This document shows positions 388 to 788 of a stretch of 13,384 nt of DNA, piece by piece. The stretch lies in UHGV virus genome UHGV-1740647; one strand, 5' to 3'. The notes under the pieces were generated by a model. The model had not been told where the DNA came from. It saw only the letters and a program-made list of their open reading frames with translations, and did not search any database. Position 1 is the first letter of the stretch, and each line of letters opens with the position of its first letter. Made by a program: the position numbers and the translations under genes. The DNA is from a virus.

Positions 388-473
388 CCTAGCCTGAAGC
401 ATTTGCAATTGTAGTGGCTGCCATTTCGATCGCACTGATTGTTTTTGCGATTTGCCGCTGGGGGTAAAATAGT

Positions 474-665
474 TCACCTGCATGGAGATTTGATGCCGGG
501 GAATTGTGGGGGAGCATTCAAACCTCTCCCCTTCCCGGTTAAAGACTCCATTGCTTTGCGGTCAGAGAGATACATCAGCTTCATCAGCTTAATGAAACGC
601 ATAGATCCGCCATGCTTTTTCAGCAAATACGCTGCCATTTGCGCAACTTTTTCTTCATTAAACAT
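474..665 (-). pseudogene. N-terminal remnant of a DUF4065/Panacea-domain (GepA/SocA-like) phage-associated protein
   Basis: The 63-aa ORF begins MFNEEKVAQMAAYLLKKHGGSMRFIKLMKLMYLSDRKAME, which resembles the N-terminal core of Panacea/DUF4065 proteins (normally 150-300 aa). The frame closes after 63 codons and the region where the rest should lie is occupied by the convergent DUF551 gene. Family call is from memory of the domain consensus. Confidence 0.4.
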
Positions 666-758
666 AAATCGGCTCTCTGTCTCACATGAAATACTCTTTC
701 TGACTATATGTTAATAGCTCCGGTTATTACAGGTTAATGTGTGTTTATTTCTTAATCA

Positions 759-780
759 GCCCCGCACTTCCGTACGGGGC
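759..780 (-). terminator. stem-loop just downstream of the giant ORF stop; possible weak terminator or 3' stabilising hairpin
   Basis: GCCCCG...CGGGGC inverted repeat (6-bp GC stem plus two inner pairs) begins 9 nt after the TAA at 789-791. The following tract on the minus strand is only moderately U-rich (TGATTAAGAAAT), so termination efficiency is uncertain. Confidence 0.3.
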
Positions 781-788
781 CATTTCTG

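Follow-up and report, generated by a model that had tools for sequence, protein, structure and literature searches.

SocA of Caulobacter is the founding Panacea-domain protein, and the Pfam family SocA_Panacea was named for it. It acts as a ClpXP adaptor for the degradation of the toxin SocB. Other Panacea-domain proteins are PanA antitoxins, which have been validated experimentally together with toxins predicted to be EndoA/PemK/MazF RNase-like in two species, Pseudomonas moraviensis and Bifidobacterium ruminantium (Kurata et al. 2022, PNAS; PMC8832971). Here we report how a Panacea-related open reading frame (ORF) in a viral DNA stretch of 13,384 nucleotides, hereafter the window, compares with these systems. 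Positions 546-665 of the window very probably represent the 5' stub of a panA gene, which was left behind by a single 864-bp deletion from a two-gene cassette and now drifts neutrally as a non-functional pseudogene. This reading is directly supported by homology, by synteny, by the ends of the deletion, by the variability of the tail that follows the stub, and by the independent decay of the same cassette in other lineages.

The retained panA codons and the deletion junction

Positions 1-1000 of the window match the Escherichia coli FORC_069 chromosome with 100% identity, and the identity is 99.8% with E. coli O104:H4 2011C-3493 over positions 380-800 and 97.5% with the Shigella Stx phage POCJ13 over positions 28-800. 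Because of these identities, we take the window to be a piece of a 933W-like, Stx-type short-tailed prophage. The 3' part of a DUF551 gene (Pfam PF04448, E = 2e-20) occupies positions 1-387 of the plus strand, with its stop at 387. In FORC_069 this gene is 729 bp long according to RefSeq, with a start that falls to the left of the window, and it is the final large gene of the early-left operon. The minus strand encodes at positions 789-9143 a polyvalent protein of 2784 aa (LPD5/LPD1/MuF_C/LPD38), which we identified from the ORF list, from Pfam matches of its orthologues and from RefSeq names. The Panacea-related ORF, which has 63 codons and an ATG start (474-665, minus strand; ORF list), lies in the gap between the stop of this giant gene (789) and the convergent stop of the DUF551 gene (387).

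The gap is a cargo spot between the late and early-left operons, the contents of which differ among relatives. In 933W it holds hok/sok and a YgiW-like gene (locus L002, 1916-2654), and in UPEC-245U, PhiR5_2 and the E. coli prophage loci L017-L024 it holds IbrB/IbrA-like (PAPS-reductase-like) genes (L006, 4815-6670). A prophage cargo hotspot had been proposed here in the initial annotation, and the diversity of these genes agrees with it.

Only the first 40 codons of the ORF (546-665, minus strand) derive from a Panacea gene, and they are the sole Panacea-derived coding sequence left. The encoded residues show 100% identity with residues 1-40 of an intact 186-aa PanA found in L017 (7435-7995), and 65-73% identity with Panacea proteins from phages of Klebsiella and Yersinia. 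A protein search with the product of the ORF returned near-identical short proteins as well as PF13274 relatives with 73-90% identity at the N-terminus. By tblastn against phage genomes, we retrieved Panacea proteins of 186-187 aa in Yersinia phage YeP2 and Klebsiella phage ST13-OXA48phi12.5, in both of which an ORF of 135 aa directly follows the Panacea gene. The alignments with the Panacea proteins of UPEC-245U and YeP2 end at residue 40, and the alignment with the Klebsiella protein (65% identity) extends to residue 48. The remainder of the ORF (474-545, minus strand) is a read-through tail, made of codons 41-63 (477-545) and a stop (474-476), which is not gene-derived and matches non-coding flanking DNA of L017. 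Of the 63 surviving Panacea codons initially counted, codons 1-40 are therefore genuine, whereas codons 41-63 were once part of the non-coding 3' flank.

Descent from a Panacea gene is evident from sequence and synteny, and profile searches recover it through the orthologue rather than through the stub. Pfam returned no match for the 63-aa product (E <= 10) or for its 40-aa Panacea-derived part (E <= 1), and the stub product does not reach the gathering score of PF13274 (25.7 bits). The intact 186-aa PanA from the same locus scores instead 78.8 bits against PF13274 (cut-off 25.7) over residues 27-139, so that the expected similarity to Panacea models holds for the orthologue and fails for the 63-aa product. 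NCBIfam gave nothing for the stub, for the PanA of UPEC-245U or for the 933W protein L0135. Among the PHROG families, the stub product weakly matches the 195-position phrog_1281, which is the family matched by intact Panacea proteins. PGAP calls the stub a gene and names its product hypothetical protein WP_000481379.1. Since the start codon and the 5' leader are intact, a peptide may be produced. We infer, however, that this peptide almost certainly has no function, because 14 of the 113 PF13274 positions are left (residues 27-40) and there is no toxin to neutralize.

The origin of the tail emerges from the comparison with L017. Read along the minus strand, window positions 1200 to 545 match L017 6900-7555 with 95.6% nucleotide identity over 656 bp, and positions 545 to 418 match L017 8420-8546 with 96.1% identity. 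In L017 this second segment is non-coding and lies downstream of the gene for the PanA partner. Since the window follows L017 on either side of the junction, it differs from the intact locus by one deletion of 864 bp (L017 7556-8419). The junction is at position 545, with 1 nt (T) of microhomology: with the break marked by a slash, L017 reads GCAATGGAGT/TGTATGG on the left side and GTCAAC/TCTTTAACC on the right side, and the window reads GCAATGGAGTCTTTAACC. The lost segment comprises PanA codons 41-186 and the entire partner gene, and the 3' flank of the lost cassette, recognizable from its homology to L017 8420-8546, is retained at positions 418-545 (minus strand). Among complete E. coli genomes, this flank is present only in the 43 that carry the junction, which is why the DNA of positions 464-550 appeared to be an orphan. 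A search of E. coli genomes gave only the same junction, and the draft locus L017 identified this DNA as the 3' flank of the cassette, which led us to reject the orphan assignment.

We propose that an ancestral prophage bore a two-gene cassette of 1.2 kb directly behind the giant polyvalent-protein gene, in the order PanA (186 aa), 5 nt, and a 133-aa partner with a predicted MazF/Kid/CcdB-like fold, the putative toxin. A single illegitimate deletion, 864 bp long and with the 1-nt microhomology at its ends, would have excised PanA codons 41-186 together with the partner. Codon 40 would in this way have been joined to the non-coding 3' flank, in which the frame would stay open for another 23 codons until a stop occurs by chance.

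The intact cassette and its decay in related prophages

A first indication of the cassette outside the window is a partial Panacea protein of 109 aa (P0017), which is encoded on a contig of E. coli immediately behind an LPD5 giant gene. The complete cassette is found in the eight E. coli prophage loci (L017-L024) that encode the partner P0064. All eight have the same arrangement, with a 186-aa PanA, 5 nt, a 133-aa partner, and then convergent IbrB/IbrA-like genes. A giant gene with an LPD5 or LPD38 domain was called directly upstream of PanA in seven of the eight, and in L018 no gene was called there. The same position of the Panacea gene after the giant gene holds in L005 and L006. Comparison with related prophages thus located both the intact cassette and its partner gene, and the pair lies at exactly the position of the stub. 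This result bears out the initial suggestion of a scar left by a lost toxin-antitoxin or defence cassette, here a unit of two genes that is toxin-antitoxin-like.

A direct repeat of 148 bp brackets the cassette in L017 (7195-7341 and 8542-8689), and window positions 759-905 match both copies. The repeat consists of the last 117 bp of the giant gene and of the hairpin that follows it. This hairpin (759-780, minus strand; arms at 759-767 and 772-780) lies just after the stop of the giant gene and corresponds to the boundary of the cassette insertion. Because of the flanking repeats, the cassette appears to behave as a discrete module of approximately 1.2 kb, placed right after the hairpin of the giant gene. 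If the repeats recombine, it could be excised cleanly, and the structure suggests that of the two crossovers by which it entered, one was homologous and the other illegitimate. In some genomes, homology to the window ends at around 755-758, which fits either a clean removal of the cassette or a locus in which it was never present.

The cassette has the look of a genuine gene pair: a Panacea gene with a member of the partner family behind it is seen repeatedly, in phages of Yersinia, Klebsiella, Escherichia, Pseudomonas, Vibrio and Helicobacter. In the whole window, tblastn detected no partner gene, and the stub has no adjacent co-directional partner. A PDB sequence search with the intact PanA returned no match, and PADLOC reported nothing for the intact PanA proteins or their partners. 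The partner has no PemK/MazF or CcdB match in Pfam, where its sole match is a sub-threshold chance similarity to ICMT, and in NCBIfam one partner protein gave far-sub-threshold chance matches only. Its AlphaFold2 model (pLDDT 89.8, pTM 0.83) predicts a fold of the MazF/CcdB type. An alignment of 32 partner sequences revealed invariant His and Cys residues, which differ from the catalytic residues of MazF. In the numbering of P0064 these are H20, H22, C25, C58 and H65, with the motif HLHxxCNDP, and on a MazF-like fold they resemble a metal site or an active site of unusual type. Given the recurrent pairing, the confident model of the partner and the precedent of Kurata et al., the lost cassette was probably a PanA-PanT pair with a MazF-fold toxin. 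In such a pair the partner would be toxic and PanA would neutralize it.

Other prophages carry different states of decay of the same cassette. In 933W (L002, 2734-3090), PanA codons 1-27 are joined to the final 24 codons of the gene in a different frame, and L0135 (62 aa) comes next. This locus has two internal deletions of the cassette, one of which begins within the AAGCTGATG repeat of PanA described below, and its stub of codons 1-27 is unannotated. L0135 matches the partner of YeP2 (E = 9e-6) and is an internally deleted copy of the partner, with residues 1-11 of P0064 joined to about residues 89-122. Save for this deletion and a divergent C-terminal end, the two proteins are near-identical. 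A protein search with L0135 returned 62-aa copies only, and its full-length relative P0064 was found by using the Lys8385Vzw partner as query. In UPEC-245U/190328 and PhiR5_2, a 174-aa Panacea gene without partner stands before IbrB/IbrA-like genes that converge on it. In UPEC-245U and PhiR5_2, codon 9 of PanA is changed from CAA to TAA directly before Met10 (L006, 4175-4204; L009, 3501-3530), and for this reason RefSeq places the start of the UPEC-245U-type PanA at Met10. This gene may be an orphan heading for decay, or it may reinitiate at Met10. In JNEC-KY204, an IS1 is inserted in PanA. Since their break points differ, the three types of scar are of independent origin, and the partner gene is destroyed in each of them.

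We measured the frequency of these states in 5426 complete E. coli genomes. The intact pair was present in none of them (0 out of 5426), PanA only in 18 (one of them split by IS1), the junction of the window in 43, and the 933W-type double deletion in 100. Intact pairs do occur in draft assemblies and metagenomes, with 24 contigs read and P0064 present in 60 index blocks. Since 161 complete genomes have one of the three scars and none has the intact pair, the loss of the cassette could be thought of as non-neutral. Stx-type prophages would then be selected to shed the toxin, or the orphan PanA of the UPEC-type prophages, or even the 40-residue stub, would be retained as decoys against toxins of the host or of rival phages. 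We consider such selection very unlikely, and favor neutral drift of the stub after the deletion.

Alternative explanations for the stub and its tail

Some of the DNA around the stub has outlasted the deletion, and this may suggest that stub and leader are kept for a role at the RNA level, for instance as an antisense promoter into the DUF551 gene and the small ORF that follows it or as hairpin terminators between convergent operons. The 5' leader and intergenic DNA of the cassette (666-758, minus strand) is intact, and in an alignment of five related loci it is free of gaps and shows scattered substitutions, the one exception being a 1-nt gap in 933W. An imperfect G+C-rich hairpin (-30.1 kcal/mol) is likewise preserved in the 3' flank at approximately 496-538, and the late and early-left transcription units converge on this region. 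However, the scan found neither a sigma-70 consensus promoter nor, at the hairpins, a canonical terminator, and the two terminator-like sites that it returned lie within the coding stub, in number close to chance expectation. The z score of the 3' hairpin is only -1.95, and a search of Rfam with window positions 300-900 (E <= 1) gave two noise matches only, both far below the gathering scores. Moreover, other lineages lose different parts of the same DNA. We regard a role of this kind as highly improbable, which leaves a stub that drifts without function as the preferred explanation.

The variation among copies of the stub bears on whether the 63-aa product could be a small protein that is complete and conserved as such. 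Comparison of the loci identified a tandem repeat of 9 bp, AAGCTGATG (Lys-Leu-Met), at positions 573-590 (minus strand). The window, O104:H4 and L017 have two copies, POCJ13, UPEC-245U and PhiR5_2 have one, and cM8a has three. In the tail, a G5/C5 homopolymer run (508-512) is a site of slippage: O104:H4 2011C-3493 has lost one base there, which results in an ORF of 91 aa that reaches the DUF551 stop. The initial annotation had the gene run into the 3' end of the convergent DUF551 gene, and this is true of the O104:H4 variant only, whereas in the window 87 nt separate the end of the ORF from the DUF551 stop. Overall, copies that are identical but for small indels encode products of 51, 60, 63, 66, 88, 91 and 103 aa, and the differences arise from the number of 9-bp repeats, from homopolymer slips and from small deletions. 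Since product lengths vary in this way among near-identical copies, the tail is not kept in frame, and tail and repeat both show no constraint. The ORF is open in some frame in all 43 complete genomes with the junction, which is expected for a recent shared event and is no proof of neutrality.

A conserved small protein would be consistent with the match of the stub product to phrog_3658 (E = 7e-39) and with the annotation of the ORF in POCJ13, in 75/02 Stx and in RefSeq genomes. Against it, full-length matches to the 63-aa product come from one lineage only, with at least 95% identity, intact PanA proteins match phrog_3658 over profile positions 1-41 alone, and residues 41-63 are encoded by formerly non-coding DNA in a tail whose frame and length differ among copies. 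We therefore find it extremely improbable that the product is complete. phrog_3658 is best taken as a cluster of pseudogene products, like phrog_28947 and phrog_1925. The PHROG data suggest that these three families, of which phrog_28947 contains the 933W stub and phrog_1925 contains L0135, are largely fragment clusters of one decayed cassette.

Between the tail and the DUF551 gene, the plus strand has an unannotated hydrophobic ORF of 27 codons (384-467; MT*PEAFAIVVAAISIALIVFAICRWG) that is conserved in relatives. The start codon shares bases with the DUF551 stop (ATGA) and is preceded, 7 nt upstream at positions 370-376, by an AAGGAGG motif. In the window it is inactivated by an amber mutation in codon 3 (TGG to TAG, 390-392), and the TAG is shared by every examined copy of this lineage. 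Intact versions are found in 933W, Stx2a_1447, Stx2_09E025 and 666R9, with the same length and frame and with 73-88% nucleotide identity. They retain the ends MTWPEAF...ICRWG and the hydrophobic core. The ORF is probably a small membrane protein gene that closes the early-left operon. Positions 388-469 were ruled out as a continuation of the Panacea gene, since they contain this conserved plus-strand ORF instead. The fragments in other frames that had been quoted as such a continuation contain no Panacea sequence, and positions 384-467 belong to the small gene on the opposite strand.

The least credible of the explanations is that of a Panacea gene mostly present and frameshifted, with a continuation readable in other frames within 388-545: the 1-nt slip in the tail of the O104:H4 allele and the ORFs of 88-103 aa in some copies are in its favor, but tblastn of three intact Panacea and two partner proteins against window positions 1-1200 (word size 2, E <= 10) recovered residues 1-40 (665-546) only, whichever the frame, beyond the junction the window follows the intact locus again 864 bp farther on, where that locus is non-coding, and the longer ORFs read into the flank and, in antisense, across the small ORF at 384-467. 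The frameshifted continuation assumed in the initial annotation is thus refuted, and the tail is better explained by the fusion of PanA codon 40 to the 3' flank of the cassette.

Comparison with known Panacea systems

These results affect annotation, as the hypothetical protein of O104:H4-type and Shigella Stx prophages is best described as a pseudogene stub. They also identify its intact ancestor as a previously uncharacterized pair of PanA and a protein of predicted MazF-like fold, located behind the giant injected-protein gene of 933W-like phages. The allelic series, composed of the intact pair, PanA only, the two scars and the IS1 insertion, illustrates how toxin-antitoxin cargo erodes in prophages. 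The feature itself is a real and ordinary pseudogene of a known family, which leaves the knowledge of Panacea systems unchanged.

When compared to SocA of the Caulobacter SocAB system, the likeness consists in the Pfam domain that SocA shares with the intact PanA orthologue. With PanA-PanT systems, especially the pairs with a predicted EndoA/PemK/MazF-like toxin, the likeness is that the intact orthologue is a PF13274 protein beside a small partner with a predicted MazF/Kid/CcdB-like fold, and that it occurs in prophages; habitat and two-gene arrangement are those known from PanAT. The window differs from these systems in that it keeps 40 PanA codons and its partner is gone. Moreover, the E. 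coli partner family has no match to PemK/MazF or to any other Pfam family and has invariant His and Cys residues of its own. A further counterpart of the stub is the scar of 933W, also present in other O157:H7 Stx phages, which has the same position after the giant gene, shares the first 27 codons and goes back to the same ancestral cassette. The deletions of the two scars are nevertheless unlike, and 933W keeps the last 24 PanA codons and a shortened partner, together with the additional hok/sok and YgiW-like cargo.
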